From: a virus
Taxonomy: Duplodnaviria; Caudoviricetes
DNA length: 34,331 nt
Virus record (IMG/VR): IMGVR_UViG_3300022923_001480
Span: 1 to 34,331 of that record
Direction: 5' to 3' (one strand)
Shown: piece after piece, positions 1-15,488 of the stretch
Position numbering within the stretch: the first letter of the stretch is position 1
How the letters are laid out: each line of letters begins with the position of its first letter
Position numbers and translations under genes: made by a program
The notes under the pieces: model-generated
Seen by the model: the letters and a program-made list of their open reading frames with translations, nothing else
Database searches by the model: none
Told to the model about the DNA's origin: nothing

Positions 1-47
1 ACTAGACTTTGCCAACGTAATGCTCTTTCTATTTCTTTATTGTCCAT
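1..47 (-). CDS. 5' end of a gene running off the window edge (MDNKEIERALRWQSLV...)
   Basis: ATG at 47-45 overlaps the end of the 37..1353 gene, and the frame stays open to the window edge. Product cannot be determined. Confidence 0.55.
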   Translation of the reverse strand, partial: MDNKEIERALRWQSL

Positions 48-1353
48 CTATACTTTCCGCTAACTCTGGAAATGTTTCTCTCCAGTCAGTCCCTCTTGTT
101 TTATCACAACTGTCTAAATATTCTACCAATGCAGGTAATTTATGACTCCAATCTTCTGCGTACATAAATTTAATTATACCTTCCCAACGCTGTCTGCCCA
201 TAGGATGATCATTGAAGTACTTGTCATTTGAATGCCTAATTAGAAAGTCTTCGATATTTCTACGCACCTTGTTTTTAATTTCTATAGGCAATACTTTAAT
301 ATTCATATAACTTGGTAGATATACAAAATGTGTATTAATAAAAGGTGCAGCCATATGTGTTCTTTTATTATTAATTTGATTTGCTTGTATTGACCATTCT
401 ACAAAATTTGTTAAGTCAAGTGCATTAAGTGCTTGTACAGCACAAGCAATATTAACTTGATGATTTTTATCTAGTTCTTGTGTAATGTAATAGAATGCAT
501 CAAGTTGATCGCTCCATACACTTGGATGTCTTATGTAATTGTTTACACGTTCAGTTCCATCCATACTAAAATTTACAACAACTTCTTTAAACTGATTCCA
601 ATAGTTAACAGCCTTTCTCATACTAGGAGGGTGTCCATTGGTGTTATATCTTAACTTAATATTTTTTGCGTGACCATCTGCTATTAGCTCTTGTAATATT
701 TTCCAATGCTCGGGAATCATTAATGGCTCACCGCCAGCAAAATATAACTGCTGAATGTTATGACTTTGCTGCATCATACTTTCAATAAAACTTCCCTTCT
801 TGTACCAAGTGTAATCAAAGTTTTGATCCCAATCTTGATCACTTGCTAGAATAGGATTTTTGTAATTAGGTTGTTGACTTCTCCAATCCTTAATCCAACT
901 TGAACTATCGTGCGGCGAACACATTACACATTTTAGGTTACATACATTTCCTAAGCGTAAATCAAAGTAAGGAATATCAACCTCCAAACTACCATCTTCT
1001 TGTGTTTTATCTACAAGGTTTTTCATATCAATTTTTCCTTCCCATTCACGTGTTTCCCATTGACGTTTGCTCACTACACCTTTACTTTCTTCATCAAAGC
1101 ATTTTGTGCAACTTACAGGTACTTCACCATTTAACATTTGCAGTCTTGTGTTACGCATATGTTCACTATTCCATACTTCTTCAATAGTATGGTCTCTCAA
1201 GTTCATAGCAATACCGTCTTTCTTTACAAGTCCTGCAGTCTTATTATCTTCCGGGCCAGCACCACTTGCATTTGCTGTACAGCAAACTCTCACATCACCA
1301 TTAGGCCTAGTCGCCATATGTATCCAAGGTAGCGGGCAAAACGTTTTACTCAT
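37..1353 (-). CDS. Radical SAM protein with N-terminal SPASM/twitch-like auxiliary Fe-S domain
   Basis: CNLKCVMC (CxxxCxxC), FAGGEPL and YNTNG motifs. N-terminal CPLPW...GDVRVCC...IEEVWNS...CTKC pattern. Confidence 0.9.
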   Translation of the reverse strand: MSKTFCPLPWIHMATRPNGDVRVCCTANASGAGPEDNKTAGLVKKDGIAMNLRDHTIEEVWNSEHMRNTRLQMLNGEVPVSCTKCFDEESKGVVSKRQWETREWEGKIDMKNLVDKTQEDGSLEVDIPYFDLRLGNVCNLKCVMCSPHDSSSWIKDWRSQQPNYKNPILASDQDWDQNFDYTWYKKGSFIESMMQQSHNIQQLYFAGGEPLMIPEHWKILQELIADGHAKNIKLRYNTNGHPPSMRKAVNYWNQFKEVVVNFSMDGTERVNNYIRHPSVWSDQLDAFYYITQELDKNHQVNIACAVQALNALDLTNFVEWSIQANQINNKRTHMAAPFINTHFVYLPSYMNIKVLPIEIKNKVRRNIEDFLIRHSNDKYFNDHPMGRQRWEGIIKFMYAEDWSHKLPALVEYLDSCDKTRGTDWRETFPELAESIDGQ

Positions 1354-2344
1354 TTGGTATCCCTACAAACTGTTTATTTAATTTATCAAAGTTGCCGCAC
1401 TGCCTTGTACATTCTTTCAAACCTGTAGTTGACCAGCAACTTGATATTTTGCTAAAAAAGCCACTTGCAAATATATCGCTAAGACTTTTATTATTTAGAT
1501 TAGGATATTCTTTAACTTTGCTCATATAATCTATACGAGAAAAACTATGCTGCGGCACCCATTCTAAATCTAACCAACAGCAAGGACTTACACCGCCGTT
1601 AGCAGCAACATATATTTGGTTATATTTTTGTGCTTTACAAGTGATGTTAGGTAACACATCTTGTTTTGCTTTTTCAACTCCTGCACTGTTTTTATCACTA
1701 TGCGTAGTTGGATACAAAGTATGTGTTATATTGTAATTATCATCTATAACATCTAGTTTACCGTCTCTGAATCTACTTGTGTGTTTTTGATAGAAATGTG
1801 TAAAGCCTAATTCTTTTGACATCTGTTCACATTTACTAACTTGGTGTTCATTATGTTTGAACACTAACATATCCCAACGAGCATCTCCACCTGCTTGTAT
1901 AAATGCTGTTGCATTTTTTATTATTTTGTTAAAGTCTGTGTTTACTCTATAAAGAGAGTGAGTGTCTTCTAAACCATCTATACCAAACACAACTTGCACA
2001 TTCAAACTTGCTAATTCTTTCCACCAATCTATAGACCTTGCACTGCCGTTAGTATGCATTTGTAAATGCATTATAGGATTGGTTTCTCTAAGATATCTGT
2101 ATATTTCTAAAGTGTCTGTTGCAATTATAGGATCTCCTAAATTACCACACATATTCAATTCATCTAACTGTTTTACAAAGTCTCTTGGAAACCAATTAAC
2201 AAAAGTGCCTAAATCTATTTCTTCAAGATATAAAGTATCAAGGAGCGGTCCGCCTTGTATTCTGCGAGGACACATAGGGCACTTTGCTTGACACTTAGAT
2301 GTCACTTCAAGGTGAACTGATTTGATTTGATCTATGTTATACAT
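1346..2344 (-). CDS. Radical SAM protein with C-terminal SPASM/twitch-like domain
   Basis: CQAKCPMC, CGNLGDP, MHTNGS and FGIDG motifs. C-terminal C...GGVSPCCW...CTRQC. Confidence 0.9.
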   Translation of the reverse strand: MYNIDQIKSVHLEVTSKCQAKCPMCPRRIQGGPLLDTLYLEEIDLGTFVNWFPRDFVKQLDELNMCGNLGDPIIATDTLEIYRYLRETNPIMHLQMHTNGSARSIDWWKELASLNVQVVFGIDGLEDTHSLYRVNTDFNKIIKNATAFIQAGGDARWDMLVFKHNEHQVSKCEQMSKELGFTHFYQKHTSRFRDGKLDVIDDNYNITHTLYPTTHSDKNSAGVEKAKQDVLPNITCKAQKYNQIYVAANGGVSPCCWLDLEWVPQHSFSRIDYMSKVKEYPNLNNKSLSDIFASGFFSKISSCWSTTGLKECTRQCGNFDKLNKQFVGIPNE

Positions 2345-2949
2345 TACTTGTGTCCAATAAGCATAAATCTTATATACTTTTGTAATTGTAACTCATCCTC
2401 AACCATATATGAAGATAAGCCACTGCTTTTTTTAAATGCTGCTAAAGATGATACACAATTTACGTGTTCATCTAGTTCTTTATAATCATTACTTTGTAGT
2501 ACTATTTTACAATCTTTAGGAACATTTTGCAACCATTTTTTATATTGTGCTTTGGTCAGATGTTCACAACTTGTATTAATAACTATGTCAGGTTTTTTGT
2601 CGTAATGGAAGTTACACATATCTTCTGTAACAGCAACAAACTTGCCTTCCATTTCTTGTCGCTTATTCATTGTTCTTGCTATTTCTTCGCAAACAGGATC
2701 AATATCTACACTTGTAATATGTTTTATTCCTATTTCACTGTTAAACAACATACTAGCAAGTACACCATTCCATCCACCAAAAATAATAACTGATGCATTT
2801 GCAATACGTGATTTTCTTTCAAGAGATTCTATTAACCAAGTTTTGGATTGAAGTTGTCCTCCCCAAAAACTTTCAAGTGTTCGACTTCTGTCATCGCTGT
2901 TGCGAATAGCATCCATCCAAAATTTTATATCTTGTATATCTATTTTCAT
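2344..2949 (-). CDS. Class I SAM-dependent methyltransferase-like protein
   Basis: VIIFGGWNG glycine loop, ITSVDID acidic motif II, DIVINTSCEH. Translationally coupled to both neighbours. Confidence 0.75.
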   Translation of the reverse strand: MKIDIQDIKFWMDAIRNSDDRSRTLESFWGGQLQSKTWLIESLERKSRIANASVIIFGGWNGVLASMLFNSEIGIKHITSVDIDPVCEEIARTMNKRQEMEGKFVAVTEDMCNFHYDKKPDIVINTSCEHLTKAQYKKWLQNVPKDCKIVLQSNDYKELDEHVNCVSSLAAFKKSSGLSSYMVEDELQLQKYIRFMLIGHK

Positions 2950-3926
2950 CTTGATTTTGGTATTTTACTGTCTGCAGAACTTACACAGGTGCTAGTAATG
3001 CATTTAGATGGTGCTTTAAACAGCGTAAAACCGTCTGTAAGCGTGCCTAAAGGCTCTTCCGCACAACTATATGCTCTCTTAACTTCCACCCCCCTTATAA
3101 CGCAACTTTGATACCCTGCTGCGCAATTCCAATCTTTAAACTTATTGAAGTCAAATGCGTTCATTCTTTCTGCTTGATCCAATCCGTAATCGTTACCTTT
3201 GTGATCTTCAAAATACATTTGCATAACTTGTTCACCTTTTATGTGTTGTGGAAATTGTTCTTGCATCATTAAGTGTTGTTTCACAGTATATCCATCTACA
3301 ATAAAACTAGCAGTTGGATCGCTTTGTGGTTTAAGTGTTACATTAATACCCCTTTCTGAAAATCGTTTGCACCTTTCATAATACTCGTCAAAATGGTGAG
3401 GAACCATTACTTGATTGATTGTAACTAATACACCGTCAGCCATAAGTTGTAAACATTTGTCTCCAAACTCTTGCTCCTTTGCAAACTCAGAATGGAAACT
3501 AGCAGTAATACTTCTGCGTTGTAATTTACTCGTTGCTTCTAGCCATCTGTTCCACCATTTGCTACCTGGAGATAGATTAGTGGTCATATGTATACTTTGG
3601 TAAGGTGCTTCTGTATCACTACAGTAATGCTCTATAAGCTCTCCAAAGTGTTTGTACGCTGTTGGCTCGCCTCCACTAAAACTAAAATGGAATTCAGTAA
3701 ATCCATTATCTCTTGCCTGGCGTTTAATTTCATCTATCGTATTTTTGTAGACATCTAGTTCTTGATGATCTGGTTTATCCGTTCTTGCATATGGCCAACA
3801 GTAACTACAACTGTAATTGCAAAAGCGACCAAGTATCCAACTAACATTGAATAAAGGTTGATCTAGCATAGTTTTTTGGCCGAACTTTACAATGTTTTGG
3901 AACGGAATAAGAGTAAAATCATTCAT
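2946..3926 (-). CDS. Radical SAM protein with C-terminal twitch-like Cys cluster
   Basis: CNYSCSYC, FSGGEPT, MTTN, ASFH and several C-terminal Cys. Start placed at ATG 3926 because the upstream ATG at 3935 overlaps the TAAATA box. Confidence 0.88.
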   Translation of the reverse strand: MNDFTLIPFQNIVKFGQKTMLDQPLFNVSWILGRFCNYSCSYCWPYARTDKPDHQELDVYKNTIDEIKRQARDNGFTEFHFSFSGGEPTAYKHFGELIEHYCSDTEAPYQSIHMTTNLSPGSKWWNRWLEATSKLQRRSITASFHSEFAKEQEFGDKCLQLMADGVLVTINQVMVPHHFDEYYERCKRFSERGINVTLKPQSDPTASFIVDGYTVKQHLMMQEQFPQHIKGEQVMQMYFEDHKGNDYGLDQAERMNAFDFNKFKDWNCAAGYQSCVIRGVEVKRAYSCAEEPLGTLTDGFTLFKAPSKCITSTCVSSADSKIPKSR

Positions 3927-3934
3927 TATAAACA

Positions 3935-3940
3935 TATTTA
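3935..3940 (-). promoter_or_regulatory. TAAATA late-promoter-like box for the radical SAM operon
   Basis: TATTTA on the + strand, 8 nt upstream of ATG 3926. Matches the core of the T4 late promoter TATAAATA. Confidence 0.55.
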
Positions 3941-4555: not shown

Positions 4556-4721
4556 AGATAAAAATAAGTTATTCAGAGATATAATGCGTATAGACTTTCT
4601 CCAAGATGAGATAGAATACGCTACAAAGCAATTACAACCACACGACACAGGCCATATAAATACGGCTATAAGTTGGTTACATCACAGAGTTAGACAGTTA
4701 AAAGGACAAACAGATGACTGA
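4521..4721 (+). CDS. Hypothetical phage protein
   Basis: ORF fills the gap and is coupled to thyX. ATG at 4521 is in frame with the track start at 4512. Confidence 0.65.
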   Translation: MTRTKKKVQTSKDKNKLFRDIMRIDFLQDEIEYATKQLQPHDTGHINTAISWLHHRVRQLKGQTDD

Positions 4722-5376
4722 AGTAAAATTGATTTCCTATAGCACAGCACCACAAGGAGTAGGTTTAGACAACTGTCAAGAACTTATTGCTTATTGTGCT
4801 AGAGTAAGCAATCCAAGCAATCAAATGAACAGTGAGACAAGTGAGAAACTTATCAAGTATCTAATTAAACACGCTCATTGGTCTCCACTTGAAATGGTAA
4901 GTGCTTGTTTAGAAATAAACACAACACGAGATATTGCACATCAAATTGTAAGACATCGTAGTTTTAGTTTCCAAGAGTTTAGCCAACGCTATGCAAATCC
5001 TGCAGAGTTTGGTGAAATGTTTGTAACACGTGAAGCACGTTTACAAGACAAACAAAACAGACAAAATTCAATTGAACTTGATGATGAAAGTGAATTACAT
5101 TATGATTGGGCTTCAAAACAACAAGAAGTAATTGAAAAAGCAAAAGAAGTATATAACTGGGCTATCGACAACGGTATTGCTAAAGAGCAGGCTCGTGTTG
5201 TCTTGCCTGAAGGTAACACAAAAACACGTTTGTATATGAACGGAACACTGCGTTCGTGGATTCATTATATTGAACTACGTGGCGCAAACGGAACACAGAA
5301 AGAGCATATGGATATTGCACACGCCTGTGCTAAAGTCATTGCTGATATTTTTCCACTAGCAACAGATTTAGTCTAA
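4714..5376 (+). CDS. thyX: FAD-dependent thymidylate synthase
   Basis: RHRSFSFQEFSQRY (RHRx7SxR), HWSPLE and AKEQARVVLP. Confidence 0.96.
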   Translation: MTEVKLISYSTAPQGVGLDNCQELIAYCARVSNPSNQMNSETSEKLIKYLIKHAHWSPLEMVSACLEINTTRDIAHQIVRHRSFSFQEFSQRYANPAEFGEMFVTREARLQDKQNRQNSIELDDESELHYDWASKQQEVIEKAKEVYNWAIDNGIAKEQARVVLPEGNTKTRLYMNGTLRSWIHYIELRGANGTQKEHMDIAHACAKVIADIFPLATDLV

Positions 5377-5823: not shown

Positions 5824-5852
5824 TTGACAAAGGATATATATCATCATATAAT
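5824..5852 (+). promoter_or_regulatory. Sigma70-type early promoter
   Basis: TTGACA (5824-5829), 17 nt spacer, TATAAT (5847-5852). Confidence 0.9.
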
Positions 5853-8058: not shown

Positions 8059-8664
8059 GTGATTGCCTATTGCATAGGTAATGGTGAAAGCCGAAGATTC
8101 TTAAACCTTCCTAAACTAACAGAAAATAAAACAGTAGTAGGTTGTAATGCATTACACAGAGATCTCGCTGTAGATCATTTAATATGCTGCGACAGACGTA
8201 TGGTAGATGAAGCAATACAAAGTGATAACACTGCTAACACTAAAATTTATGTTAGAGATATGTGGTTCAAGTATTTTAGAAAGATTAAAAAAGACAAAAG
8301 AATAAATCATTTACCAGACTTACCTTACAAAGGTGAAAAGAAAATAGATCAACCTTTACATTGGGGCAGTGGAACTTATGCACTTTTAGTTGCAGCAAGT
8401 TTGCCAGACATTACCGAGGTAAGAATAATTGGTTTTGACCTATACGATAAAAATAGTAAGGTGAATAACATTTACAAAAACACAATGCACTATGCTAAAA
8501 AGGATGATAAACCTGTAGACTTTAGTTATTGGGTGTACCAAGCACAAAAAGTTTTTGTTCACAATCCGCAGATAGAATTTAATATCATAAATGCAAAAGA
8601 TTGGCAAACTCCAACACAATGGAAACTGCCCAATGTGTCAAGTCAGCTCTTGACAACTGCCTAA
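8059..8664 (+). CDS. Maf/GT42-like nucleotide-sugar transferase fold protein
   Basis: IGNGESR, VGCNA, DHLICCD, WGSG and IIGFD motif series typical of Maf/Cst/MptE-like Rossmann proteins. GTG start. Confidence 0.55.
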   Translation: MIAYCIGNGESRRFLNLPKLTENKTVVGCNALHRDLAVDHLICCDRRMVDEAIQSDNTANTKIYVRDMWFKYFRKIKKDKRINHLPDLPYKGEKKIDQPLHWGSGTYALLVAASLPDITEVRIIGFDLYDKNSKVNNIYKNTMHYAKKDDKPVDFSYWVYQAQKVFVHNPQIEFNIINAKDWQTPTQWKLPNVSSQLLTTA

Positions 8665-8678
8665 ATAGATCGTATAAT
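8650..8678 (+). promoter_or_regulatory. Sigma70-type promoter with embedded TAAATA box
   Basis: TTGACA (8650-8655), 17 nt spacer, TATAAT (8673-8678). TAAATA lies at 8662-8667 inside the spacer. Confidence 0.88.
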
Positions 8679-8694
8679 TAATTTTATGTTTAAC

Positions 8695-8746
8695 AAGGAC
8701 TTGGCGTCAACCCTTCTAATTCTGCCGCCATTATTTAAAACAGGAG
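8695..8746 (+). ncRNA. Candidate cis-regulatory pseudoknot RNA in the queD-like leader
   Basis: AAGG(8695-98)/CCTT(8712-15) and TGGCG(8702-06)/CGCCA(8726-30) are interleaved. GC-rich island in an AT-rich UTR. Confidence 0.45.
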
Positions 8747-8752
8747 AAAATA

Positions 8753-9202
8753 ATGGGAAAACATTACAGTACTAAACACTATGGACACAATATTGGACTA
8801 TCGGCAGTCTTTAGACAGCCTAACGCAGATCATTCACACTGCCATTTATTGCACGGATATAGTTTAGCATTTACATTTACATTTGGTTGTGATGAACTAG
8901 ATAATAAAAATTGGGCAGTTGACTTTGGTGGACTAAAGCCTTTGAAGGCTTGGTTGGAAGATAGTTTTGATCATAAGACTTGTGTAGATGTTAATGATCC
9001 GCATAAACAAGACTTTTATGATTTACAAGATAAAGACTTATGTGAAGTAAGAGAGTTTGATGGTGTAGGTGCAGAGAAGTTTGCAGAACACGCATTTAAC
9101 TTTGCAGACAAATTAATTAGAGAAGCAACAAATAATCGTTGCTATTGTATCAAGGTCGAGTGTGCAGAACACGGAGCCAACTCCGCAATTTACGAGGCAT
9201 AG
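8753..9202 (+). CDS. queD: QueD/6-pyruvoyl-tetrahydropterin synthase-like T-fold enzyme
   Basis: CHLLHGY, VDFGGLK, FDHK and GAEKFA motifs. AGGAG SD present. Confidence 0.85.
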   Translation: MGKHYSTKHYGHNIGLSAVFRQPNADHSHCHLLHGYSLAFTFTFGCDELDNKNWAVDFGGLKPLKAWLEDSFDHKTCVDVNDPHKQDFYDLQDKDLCEVREFDGVGAEKFAEHAFNFADKLIREATNNRCYCIKVECAEHGANSAIYEA

Positions 9203-9979
9203 ATGAGAATTATAGCAGGACCGTGTCAACACGAAACTCTAGAACAGAGTTTAAGAATAGCAAAAGAATGTAAACGTGTTTGTGATAAGCACGGTGTTGA
9301 TTATATTTTTAAAGCAAGTTACGATAAGGCAAATAGGTCAAGTATCAAAGGCAAAAGAGGACAGGGATTACAAACTACTATGCAAGACTTTGAAAGTCTT
9401 AAAAAAGTAATACCTAGTTTAAAAATTATAACAGACGTGCATAACGTCAACGAAGTTTTAAAAATAGGAGCATATTATCAAGACATAATTGATGTATTAC
9501 AGATTCCTGCTTTCTTGTGTAGACAAACTGATTTGGTCCGTGCTGCGGTCAAAACAGGAATGATTGTAAACATTAAAAAAGGACAGTTCCTTGCACCTTG
9601 GGACGTTGAAAACATTTTATCTAAAACAGAAGGTGCTAAAGAAGTTTGGATTACAGAAAGGGGAACAAGTTTTGGATATAATACTTTGGTCACTGATTTC
9701 ACTGGCCTTCAGTTTATGCTGTCTAATTATAACGTTCCCATTGTTTATGACATTACGCACTCAGTTCAAAAACCCGGAGGTATGGGCACTAGCAGTGGCG
9801 GTAATCGTGAGTATGTGCCTGGCTTGGCTCGTGCTGCATCTGCAATGGGTGTAACAGAATTCTTTTTAGAAGTTCACGAAGATCCAGATAATGCACCTAG
9901 TGATGGACCTAATGCATTACATTTAAAAGATTTTAAAACAGTTGTCGCAGACATTGTTAAATATTCTTACACAGGTTAG
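9203..9979 (+). CDS. kdsA: 3-deoxy-D-manno-octulosonate 8-phosphate synthase
   Basis: IAGPC, KASYDKANRSS, QIPAFLCRQTDL, NIKKGQF, ERGTSFGY, DITHSVQ and APSDG. Confidence 0.96.
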   Translation: MRIIAGPCQHETLEQSLRIAKECKRVCDKHGVDYIFKASYDKANRSSIKGKRGQGLQTTMQDFESLKKVIPSLKIITDVHNVNEVLKIGAYYQDIIDVLQIPAFLCRQTDLVRAAVKTGMIVNIKKGQFLAPWDVENILSKTEGAKEVWITERGTSFGYNTLVTDFTGLQFMLSNYNVPIVYDITHSVQKPGGMGTSSGGNREYVPGLARAASAMGVTEFFLEVHEDPDNAPSDGPNALHLKDFKTVVADIVKYSYTG

Positions 9980-11375: not shown

Positions 11376-12069
11376 ATTTATATTTGATGTTGACGGAACA
11401 TTAACACCTAGTAGATGTTCTATGGATCCAGACTTTCAACGATGGTTCCTTAACTTCCAAGAACACAATTTTGTTTATCTTGTTACTGGTAGTGACAAAG
11501 ATAAAACATTAGAGCAAGTTGGACAGATGGTTTATAACTTTGCTGATAGAGTTTACAATTGTTCTGGCAGCGACGTTTACGAACAAGGAAAAAATGTGTA
11601 TACAAGTGAATGGAAATTACCTGAACTTGCTATTAATTTTTTAACACAATGTATGAATGAAAGTATGTTTGAACTAAGAACAGGTTTACACTTCGAACAT
11701 AGACCTGGTATGTGTAACTTTAGTGTTGTAGGTCGCAATGCAAACCAAGAACAACGTAAATTATATGTTAAGCACGATACAGGTTTTGATGAACGTAATA
11801 CAATTGCAAAAGCATTTTGTACAATATTCCCAGATATAGATGCCAAAGTAGGCGGCGAAACAGGTATTGATATTTTTCCAAAAGGCAGTGATAAATCACA
11901 AATATTAAGAGATTTTGATCCCAATGACGAGTTACATTTCTTTGGCGATGCAATGCACCCTGAAGGAAATGATTATCCATTAAAGAAAGAAATCATTGAC
12001 AAAGACTTAGGTCTCTGTTATAATGTTAAAAATTGGGAAGAGACGTGGAAAATATTACGAAAAGAATAG
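11365..12069 (+). CDS. HAD-IIB family, eukaryote-type phosphomannomutase-like
   Basis: FDVDGTLT, VTGSD, NFSVVGRNA, GGETGIDIFP, FFGD...GNDY. Confidence 0.85.
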   Translation: MTRRFIFDVDGTLTPSRCSMDPDFQRWFLNFQEHNFVYLVTGSDKDKTLEQVGQMVYNFADRVYNCSGSDVYEQGKNVYTSEWKLPELAINFLTQCMNESMFELRTGLHFEHRPGMCNFSVVGRNANQEQRKLYVKHDTGFDERNTIAKAFCTIFPDIDAKVGGETGIDIFPKGSDKSQILRDFDPNDELHFFGDAMHPEGNDYPLKKEIIDKDLGLCYNVKNWEETWKILRKE

Positions 12070-14215: not shown

Positions 14216-14773
14216 ATGTTAAAAGAACTGAAAGATATTATTATTGAAGCGGACACAAAGCGTCCAACATTAGTACTTAACCCATTACCGTATGCACGTG
14301 ATGCATTAGAACCGGTAATGAGTAAGGAAAGCGTTGACCTCCATTATGGGAAACTTTCCAAAGGATATGTTGATCGCTACAACAATAAAGAAGGTGACGA
14401 TAAGTTTAACTTTGGCGGAGCGCATTTACACAACTTGTATTGGGCGCACCTCCAACCACCTACTTCAGGGAACACACCATCAGGCAGATCGCTCGAACTT
14501 ATTGACAAAAAGTTTGGGTCTTTCCAAAATTTCAAAGAGAAGTTTATTGAGAAAGCCAAAAGTCTACAAGGTTCTGGTTGGGTATATATGGATGTTAAAG
14601 GAAAACTAGATACAATTCCTAATCAAGATTTTCAACGTGGAACTGAAATTGTTATGCTAGTTGATATGTGGGAACACAGTTATCTATTAGATAAAACTAA
14701 AGACAAATATCTTAACGATATATGGCGTATTTTCAATTGGTCGATTATCAACGACAGATTAACAGGAGAATAA
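14216..14773 (+). CDS. sod: Fe/Mn superoxide dismutase (Mn-type signatures)
   Basis: LPYARDALEP, HYGK, GGAHLHNLYW, FGSF, GSGW, NQD and DMWEHSY. Confidence 0.9.
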   Translation: MLKELKDIIIEADTKRPTLVLNPLPYARDALEPVMSKESVDLHYGKLSKGYVDRYNNKEGDDKFNFGGAHLHNLYWAHLQPPTSGNTPSGRSLELIDKKFGSFQNFKEKFIEKAKSLQGSGWVYMDVKGKLDTIPNQDFQRGTEIVMLVDMWEHSYLLDKTKDKYLNDIWRIFNWSIINDRLTGE

Positions 14774-14774
14774 A

Positions 14775-14981
14775 ATGTTCAATTGGTTGAAAAACCTATT
14801 CGGGTCAGCAAAAACTGAACCATTAGTTTTAACAGAGGAAGTCAAGGCAACTAAACCAAAGACTACCGCTGCTAAAAAGCCTGCTGCAAAGAAAAAAGCA
14901 CCGGCTAAAAAGAAGTCTACTGCTATTGTAAGAAATAAAAGTAAGACTACTAAAAAGAAAACCACCAAAAAGGAGAAGTAA
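14775..14981 (+). CDS. Small Lys/Ala/Thr-rich basic protein
   Basis: AGGAG SD; amphipathic N-terminus (MFNWLKNLFG) and a KKPAAKKK histone-like tail. Confidence 0.75.
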   Translation: MFNWLKNLFGSAKTEPLVLTEEVKATKPKTTAAKKPAAKKKAPAKKKSTAIVRNKSKTTKKKTTKKEK

Positions 14982-14984
14982 ATT

Positions 14985-15158
14985 ATGTTAGACAAATTTA
15001 AATCTTGGGTAGGAAAAGCATTTCAAGAAAGAACATCTTGGGATGGTGCAGTTTTAATTGCATTTGGTATCATTGTGTTAATTGCAAAACCTTTAGCAGG
15101 TTTATTAGCATATGCTGCTATTGCATACGGCGCTTGGACTATTTGGAAAAGCGAATAG
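14985..15158 (+). CDS. Small membrane protein, 57 aa (not in ORF track)
   Basis: MLDKFKSWVGKAFQERTSWDGAVLIAFGIIVLIAKPLAGLLAYAAIAYGAWTIWKSE. AAGGAG SD; two hydrophobic segments. Confidence 0.8.
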   Translation: MLDKFKSWVGKAFQERTSWDGAVLIAFGIIVLIAKPLAGLLAYAAIAYGAWTIWKSE

Positions 15159-15161
15159 TAA

Positions 15162-15488
15162 ATGCCAGACGCAGTTAATCTAACAGATTCTGCAATTAAG
15201 CATATGGAAGGCTTAATTGAAAAGACCGGCAAGCCTATTGTCCGACTTCAAATGAAGGGTGGTGGGTGTGCCGGATTTTCATATGACTGGCAGATGGCTG
15301 ATTCTAAAGAATTAGATGACGAAGTTATTAAATTACCTAATGGTGAATTCTGCATTGACAGTGCAAGTTTGCTATATCTAATAGGAACTGAAATAGATTA
15401 CATTGAAGAAGTATTTGGTTCTTATCTATCTATTAAAAATCCCAACTCAACATCAAGTTGTGGGTGCGGTGAAAGCGTAGGCTTTTAA
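15162..15488 (+). CDS. iscA: A-type Fe-S cluster carrier (IscA/SufA/HesB family)
   Basis: GGGCAGFSY, IDY and NPN...CGCGES. Confidence 0.93.
   Translation: MPDAVNLTDSAIKHMEGLIEKTGKPIVRLQMKGGGCAGFSYDWQMADSKELDDEVIKLPNGEFCIDSASLLYLIGTEIDYIEEVFGSYLSIKNPNSTSSCGCGESVGF

Follow-up and report, generated by a model that had tools for sequence, protein, structure and literature searches.

Hundreds of sequences from uncultured phages were found to keep a compact pseudoknot motif through compensating base changes, and the motif accompanies a queD-like gene only, not an operon. We regard it as virtually certain that the fold is real, and sequence comparison gives solid support to the motif as a structured RNA and makes it a good candidate for a riboswitch.

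The window, i.e. the whole analysed stretch of 34,331 nucleotides, corresponds to a 34 kb virus record in which tail-fibre and baseplate genes occur. Relatives were found on contigs of up to 356 kb, and the window is thus probably a piece of the genome of an uncultured aquatic jumbo phage. Perfect TTGACA-17-TATAAT promoters occur three times within 11 kb of the window sequence (5824-5852, 8650-8678 and 11996-12024). The second is the exact sigma70 promoter that an earlier note on this DNA had pointed out, and it agrees with the consensus at all 12 positions; transcription would start near 8685. The leader of about 68 nt is indeed long, as the same note had held, when compared with motif-less homologues, in which promoter and Shine-Dalgarno (SD) sequence nearly abut. 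The gene downstream is QueD-like by its PTPS family and its enzyme activity is putative: the PTPS fold family was recovered, but the signature is CxxxHGY versus CxxxHGH in QueD (CPH4 synthase), and a score of 35 bits against TIGR03367 (NCBIfam QueD, cut-off 89) is below the curated threshold. No relative of the protein was found in the PDB. The features of the locus are compiled in Table 1.

Table 1. Features of the queD leader and adjacent genes in the window (positions count from the first letter of the window).
Feature	Position	Strand	Basis or remark
Sigma70-type promoter TTGACA-17-TATAAT	8650..8678	+	12/12 consensus
P1, 5' strand; G8698 in invariant G-C pair atop P1	8695..8698	+	G-C 126/126 (alignment); 45/45 (protein-found)
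Loop L1, A-C-U; consensus W-C-U, variable length after	8699..8701	+	A 35, U 10; C 44; U 43 of 45
P2, 5' strand: outer helix 8702-8706, mismatched U8707, inner C8708 and A8709	8702..8709	+	Covariation
Loop L2 (H-C)	8710..8711	+	C 45/45
P1, 3' strand	8712..8715	+	Sequence, covariation
Loop L3, AA near start, invariant U-C at end	8716..8722	+	U 45/45, C 45/45
P2, 3' strand: U8723, G8724, mismatched C8725, outer 8726-8730	8723..8730	+	Last three bases shared with anti-AUG hairpin
Predicted OFF hairpin: 8728-8736 pairs 8748-8756; AUG hidden, SD in loop	8728..8756	+	-6.9 kcal/mol, z -5.2, 0/200 shuffles
Shine-Dalgarno AGGAG	8742..8746	+	Sequence
QueD-like (PTPS-family) gene, 149 aa, CxxxHGY; regulated gene	8753..9202	+	PF01242 E 8e-13; phrog_2389
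kdsA, abuts queD stop	9203..9979	+	Could follow by translational coupling; not a conserved partner

The two stems described in the earlier note, AAGG 8695-8698 with CCUU 8712-8715 and UGGCG 8702-8706 with CGCCA 8726-8730, are present in the sequence. Its conserved cis-regulatory pseudoknot was thus borne out, but the extent of stem 2 was not, the inner half having been overlooked: beyond the U8707.C8725 mismatch, the stem continues to C8708-G8724 and A8709-U8723. The window represents the short subtype, and L3 of the long subtype is three bases longer. The outer A8695-U8715 pair is optional, with only three P1 pairs in 45 of the 113 short-type matches among those listed. In a further subtype (L039, L684, L701, L718 and L754), L1 begins A-U-G-G and a bulge of several bases shifts the outer P2, with the core left intact. 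Folding energy was unremarkable, with z 0.47 for 8685-8760 and z -0.79 for the motif alone; the evidence for the motif is therefore comparative, and single-sequence folding energy was rejected as evidence for being non-significant.

Control of a six-gene operon reaching from queD to uvsE, as the earlier note had assumed, did not hold up. Among 128 leaders, the gene 3' of queD was kdsA in 22, a glycosyltransferase-like gene in 61 (a label taken from that note, the family search having given no match for the gene) and another gene in 45. The promoter at 11996-12024, again 12/12, is located within the PMM gene and would serve uvsE. With kdsA next in so few leaders, and with a separate promoter for uvsE, we assign the element to queD.

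Four salt-marsh runs yielded RNA-library contigs over queD-kdsA, of which three start at 8715-8721 and one spans the promoter; since such contigs carry no strand or start information, neither a start site nor an expression level was derived. One contig from the RNA library of run X2 lacks 74 bases over SD and AUG (window 8729-8804); being a single contig with 35 letters on its short side, it is likely a relative or an artefact. Elsewhere in the window, three radical SAM genes (37-3935 on the minus strand, 4714-5376 and 14216-15488) have a methyltransferase-like gene, thyX, a superoxide dismutase and an Fe-S assembly gene as neighbours.

Conservation, gene linkage and range

The earlier note had proposed to collect the regions upstream of homologous genes and to examine both stems for covariation, and both steps supported the pseudoknot. 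Among 54 distinct leaders fetched by protein homology alone, the core was present in 45, one of the remaining nine being truncated where its contig stops. The pattern had left free five unpaired or mismatched positions (U8707, C8711, U8721, C8722 and C8725), and none of these varies among the 45. In all 59 protein-found loci where a regular expression recovered both motif and -10 box, the motif starts within about 20 nt of the latter.

In an alignment of 126 sequences, consisting of the window and 125 of the 151 distinct instances (the 26 omitted were near-identical rows of the short type), 11 of 13 pairs had changed on both sides. Paired cells amounted to 89.3% compared with 68.4% after shuffling, and the covariation score was 0.509 compared with 0.155, slid controls reaching at most 0.178. 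The inner pair (8709-8723) was A-U in 184/184 and G-C in 61/61 of the respective queD-linked matches listed, with no such tie in unlinked matches. A metagenome scan with a pattern that left this pair free gave 76 A-U, 44 G-C and 0 mismatches (n = 120), and the 4-bp P1 complement, likewise outside the search pattern, was found in 120/120. A quick tree built from 129 QueD proteins required at least six changes of the A-U/G-C label at the inner pair; leader-gene recombination may lie behind some of these changes and inflate the count. The motif is retained before QueD-like proteins that are only 31-40% identical to that of the window.

Viral contigs were scanned with three patterns, in which loop bases were fixed and outer stems free. 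Among the at least 359 loop-pattern matches listed, 245 precede a queD-like gene; of these, 195 have a P1 of at least four pairs together with an outer P2 of at least three, 45 are of the short subtype with a three-pair P1, and five are irregular. The other 114 matches listed comprise 111 without the two stems and three with at most 243 nt of downstream sequence. From the metagenome scan, 115 of 120 matches precede queD. L694, which has a broken outer P2 and an unrelated small ORF next to it, is the sole case of the 120 with enough DNA and no queD.

A search of GTDB with one exact long-subtype pattern yielded 11 matches, nine of them without the stems. The two true ones are located on contigs of 5.5 and 6.3 kb from Bacteroidota MAGs (L442 and L447) that are syntenic with this phage and are likely misbinned phage DNA. 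Occurrence in bacteria was rejected on this basis, the scope being that one pattern, which divergent forms could escape. Among cultured phages, blastn gave no match across the motif. The queD-motif model (R1) found nothing in the examined stretches of phiST, BUCT-ZZ01, Phosso, 2.275.O and RHph_I1_18, and model R2 nothing in those of Phosso, 2.275.O and RHph_I1_18. Judged from these sequences, the motif appears confined to phage-like DNA and to one phage assemblage. Close relatives lacking the whole motif (L020-L022, L075 and L078) start queD with TTG, versus ATG in the motif-bearing neighbours L060-L062.

Expression platform and the folE twin

The predicted OFF hairpin of the window (Table 1) has a pair probability of 0.69-0.70, and only three of its nine pairs overlap stem 2. 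It replaces the platform of the earlier note, which had CUUCU or UUCUG pairing with the SD: these helices were calculated at -1.4 and +2.3 kcal/mol with a probability of at most 0.002 in the window. Alternative pairing as such survives, with the AUG hairpin in the window and with competition for the SD in the G-C subtype, where the competitor is more often an anti-SD strand (26/43). SD or AUG pairs with knot strands in 164 of 183 leaders. In many long-subtype leaders (L026, L328-L333, L348 and others), the AUG hairpin is extended to a longer and irregular helix in which the SD is covered as well.

The two arms of the competing helix match each other better than expected from permuted partners, the arm-to-arm duplex averaging -6.2 versus -4.5 ± 0.14 kcal/mol over 183 leaders. 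A run of at least five pairs between the arms was present in 108 of 155 leaders, compared with a mean of 80 and a maximum of 95 in 500 permutations, and the same 155 leaders revealed G-C and C-G swaps at +5. As AUG hairpin and anti-SD competitors would both be relieved by the knot, ON control is predicted, and on these pairing models we consider an ON-wired regulator probable. Blocking the knot lowered the opening cost by 3.36 kcal/mol, but this test was nonspecific, with shuffled knots giving 3.5-3.7 and swapped downstream parts 2.7-2.8 kcal/mol. The drop in opening energy was therefore rejected as proof of ON wiring, as was the drop in AUG pairing, which has the same weakness, and polarity rests on the pairing tests. 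No terminator-like site was found near the motif.

The ON logic was absent from the earlier account, as was a second element in front of the folE genes of the same phages. This twin consists of P1, a six-base loop A-U-C-C-H-C, P1' and an L3 ending in U-C, followed by GGAG, so that the SD is the 3' strand of P2; the twin is predicted to be OFF-wired by SD burial. It was found at 69 of 84 folE loci, in 25 distinct forms, with a pattern that required the last loop C. In a separate scan with 120 twin matches, all 101 that had P1 and enough DNA precede folE, two were cut short, and none of the 17 without P1 precedes folE. P1 of the twin covaries; P2, being the SD, is fixed and never covaries, and is hence unproven.

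Placed in the register of the queD motif, the twin keeps the C-G pair, the C of L2 and the U-C of L3, and its inner pair is C-G. The top P1 pair varies (C-G 15, A-U 8, G-C 1 of 25), and a U-A pair takes the position of the queD motif's U.C mismatch. These differences in floor pair and U.C, together with the fixed P2, may mean that twin and queD motif bind different things. A single core pattern, drawn up post hoc after both elements had been seen, matched 66/80 folE loci and 51/80 queD loci, versus 17 matches in 765 kb of shuffled DNA. Both elements share one contig in G001, G002 and G007; in G003, G004 and G006 the queD motif is present and the twin absent, and no twin was found in the window.

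Pathway, ligand and alternative readings

The order of the FolE, QueD and QueE steps is established. GTP is converted via dihydroneopterin triphosphate and CPH4 to CDG by FolE, QueD and QueE (passages of PMC10516641). No queC was found in five of five large contigs (41-96% complete), a DpdL-like gene was found in five of five, and four contigs are common to the two sets. In view of both observations, the phages likely make neither preQ0 nor preQ1, and by analogy their route would resemble the phiST pathway to 7-deazaguanine DNA. Searches with phiST DpdA3 and with the Pfam TGT family were empty. Near the DpdL-like gene lie two unannotated ORFs, L800:4157-5704 (516 aa) and L801:17702-19432 (577 aa). 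The former gave a weak TGT-like lead (score 0.93, TGT on 17% of the cluster), has homologues in PA5oct-like phages, Phosso and 2.275.O, and is a candidate DNA transglycosylase.

The effectors suggested in the earlier note (pterin, deazaguanine, GTP or a protein) are still the right candidates. It is reasonably probable that the RNA is a small-molecule sensor; a pterin of any kind falls somewhat short of an even chance. With OFF control on the producer FolE and ON control on the consumer QueD, the metabolite between them is singled out, and this gene logic points to dihydroneopterin triphosphate or a related pterin. An RNA that binds dihydroneopterin has a precedent in THF-II, with a KD of about 18 µM (passages of PMC6800512). 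Our preferred reading, held tentatively, is that the queD leader is a translational ON riboswitch for a reduced pterin, with dihydroneopterin triphosphate, on which QueD acts, as the most likely one. In the ligand-free state, the AUG region would be paired with the 3' end of stem 2 and initiation would be low. Ligand would bind at the P1/P2 junction, where C8711 would read the guanine-like face of the pterin ring, and would lock stem 2, thereby removing 8728-8730 from the hairpin and freeing the start codon. Through the shorter folE-queE twin with the same core, the same metabolite would turn the producer off and the consumer on, the paired switches tuning flux into the phage 7-deazaguanine pathway. 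If true, the supply of a DNA-modifying base would be governed by a two-part RNA flux valve. More doubtful is the full proposal of a phage-only dihydroneopterin triphosphate riboswitch class with a preQ1-I-like knot and a rewired pocket, present twice per genome as an OFF element on folE and an ON element on queD.

The same fold and ON wiring might serve another guanine-faced ligand (guanine, GTP, CDG, a 7-deazaguanine or host preQ0/preQ1), with the folE twin perhaps a separate end-product sensor. C8711 and the G-C floor agree with the pocket of preQ1-I, the twin differs at just that floor pair, and turning queD on by GTP or guanine supply would be logical. As queE overlaps the folE stop and would be off together with folE when its upstream intermediate is high, their joint OFF control fits ordinary end-product feedback better. 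We nevertheless rate a ligand of this kind as unlikely: an end product would be expected to turn queD off, not on; the core shared by the two elements favours one ligand; and, as to preQ1, the U and A that read its minor-groove edge are missing and queC was not found in the contigs (41-96% complete). Pockets for small ligands typically have invariant unpaired pyrimidines at a helix junction. Their clustering in the queD motif is unlike the expectation for an operator at which a phage or host protein, for instance FolE, binds the knot, represses folE and activates queD in the manner of T4 gp32. Such an operator is about as improbable as the other ligand; opposite wiring would suit one protein as well as one metabolite and the motif is apparently confined to one phage assemblage, but a conserved unstructured A+U tract as in gene 32 is absent. 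Autoregulation by QueD itself is unlikely, since the motif is kept in front of genes from widely divergent QueD subfamilies. There is a phage precedent for a protein-bound pseudoknot in a leader (passages of PMC3014915).

Finally, the knot might always be formed, shielding the 5' end of the mRNA or preventing the AUG hairpin from closing, and so fixing a queD:folE ratio with no sensing. The position at the very 5' end, the nonspecific opening-energy control and the TTG start of the motif-less relatives (L020-L022, L075 and L078), as if their level were tuned otherwise, agree with this reading. We judge it decidedly improbable, as it leaves unexplained the five invariant unpaired or mismatched positions, the co-adapted competing helix and a twin that buries the SD.

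Novelty and comparison with known systems

No description of the queD-leader motif was found in our literature searches. The main text and four supplementary files of PMC10690425 gave no match, its remaining supplements being places that could hold the motif; the passages of PMC5737381 do not describe it, and the supplement of that paper could hold it; eight supplements of PMC2864571 gave no match for the gene terms. Riboswitches are described as rare in phages, those named being glutamine-type or unassigned (passages of PMC9004378). A compact class in phage-like DNA only, with a testable ligand and with both RNAs shorter than 45 nt, would add a new aptamer specificity and would show how a preQ1-I-like fold changes its ligand. 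It would also supply a regulatory mechanism for phage 7-deazaguanine synthesis, where the main-text passages of PMC10516641 mention neither a riboswitch nor regulation.

The phiST-type pathway to 7-deazaguanine DNA comprises FolE, QueD, QueE, DpdL and DpdA3 (passages of PMC10516641). The phages related to the window likewise have folE, queE, queD and a DpdL-like gene with no queC detected; they differ in giving no phiST DpdA3 match, only the TGT-like lead, and the phiST stretch is without the queD motif. The T4 gene 32 operator is also a phage leader pseudoknot that controls translation, but it is bound by gp32, represses and needs an unstructured A+U tract (passages of PMC3014915), whereas the phages here have a competing hairpin and an oppositely wired twin. 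THF-II, the folE motif, is similarly a small RNA that controls folE via the ribosome-binding site; it binds reduced pterins including dihydroneopterin (passages of PMC6800512), and pterin binding by the elements described here is suggested by gene logic. According to the same passages, THF-II has a two-stem model with the ribosome-binding site in P1 and is restricted to Rhizobiales and not queD-linked; neither of the present elements has that fold or an Rfam family match.

In keeping with the absence of an Rfam family that the earlier note had anticipated, neither element matched Rfam at the gathering score or at E up to 10, where models may miss compact forms. An element of a cultured phage that is more preQ1-like, in the folE leader of Vibrio phage 2.275.O (L804:6740-6772), likewise went unreported by Rfam. 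This has a hairpin with a U-first loop ending in U-C, then an A-rich tail, and is nearer to the preQ1-I definition than the queD motif; phage 2.275.O is annotated with queF and queC-like genes. In a queuosine-gene leader of the same phage (L804:5280-5322) and in the folE leader of Sinorhizobium phage Phosso (L803:1388-1440), the hairpin loop starts with A-C and ends with C, and an A-rich tract after the hairpin stops just before the SD. Both are possible intermediates between preQ1-I and the queD motif and were scored by neither model.

With the preQ1-I riboswitch, which we take to be Rfam RF00522, the queD motif shares a compact H-type pseudoknot with P1 and P2 before que-pathway genes. Passages of PMC11625349 define types I-III and the pocket positions, including the specificity cytosine. 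The invariant C directly 5' of the P1 3' strand (C8711, 45/45), preceded by A or U, is a further likeness, as are the adenines early in L3 and the G-C floor atop P1 (126/126 in the queD motif, only 1/25 in the folE twin); the twin in turn resembles type III in burying the SD in P2. The differences lie elsewhere. The first L1 base is mostly A (35/45, including the window; U in 10/45) in contrast to U6 of preQ1-I, and L3 ends in U-C (45/45) where that of preQ1-I is A-rich and ends in a ligand-reading adenine, so that the dissimilarity of tail and loop seen in the earlier note is genuine. P2 has six to eight pairs with a U.C mismatch, the SD lies outside, 12 nt past P2, and the motif is predicted to act as an ON element, whereas preQ1-I acts OFF by SD burial or a terminator; it also occurs in phages without detected queC. 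Since it departs from preQ1-I in the first L1 base, in the end of L3 and in its predicted polarity, the queD motif is not classed as preQ1-I. We conclude that it works like preQ1-I in topology, specificity C and G-C floor and do not file it as a member of that family.
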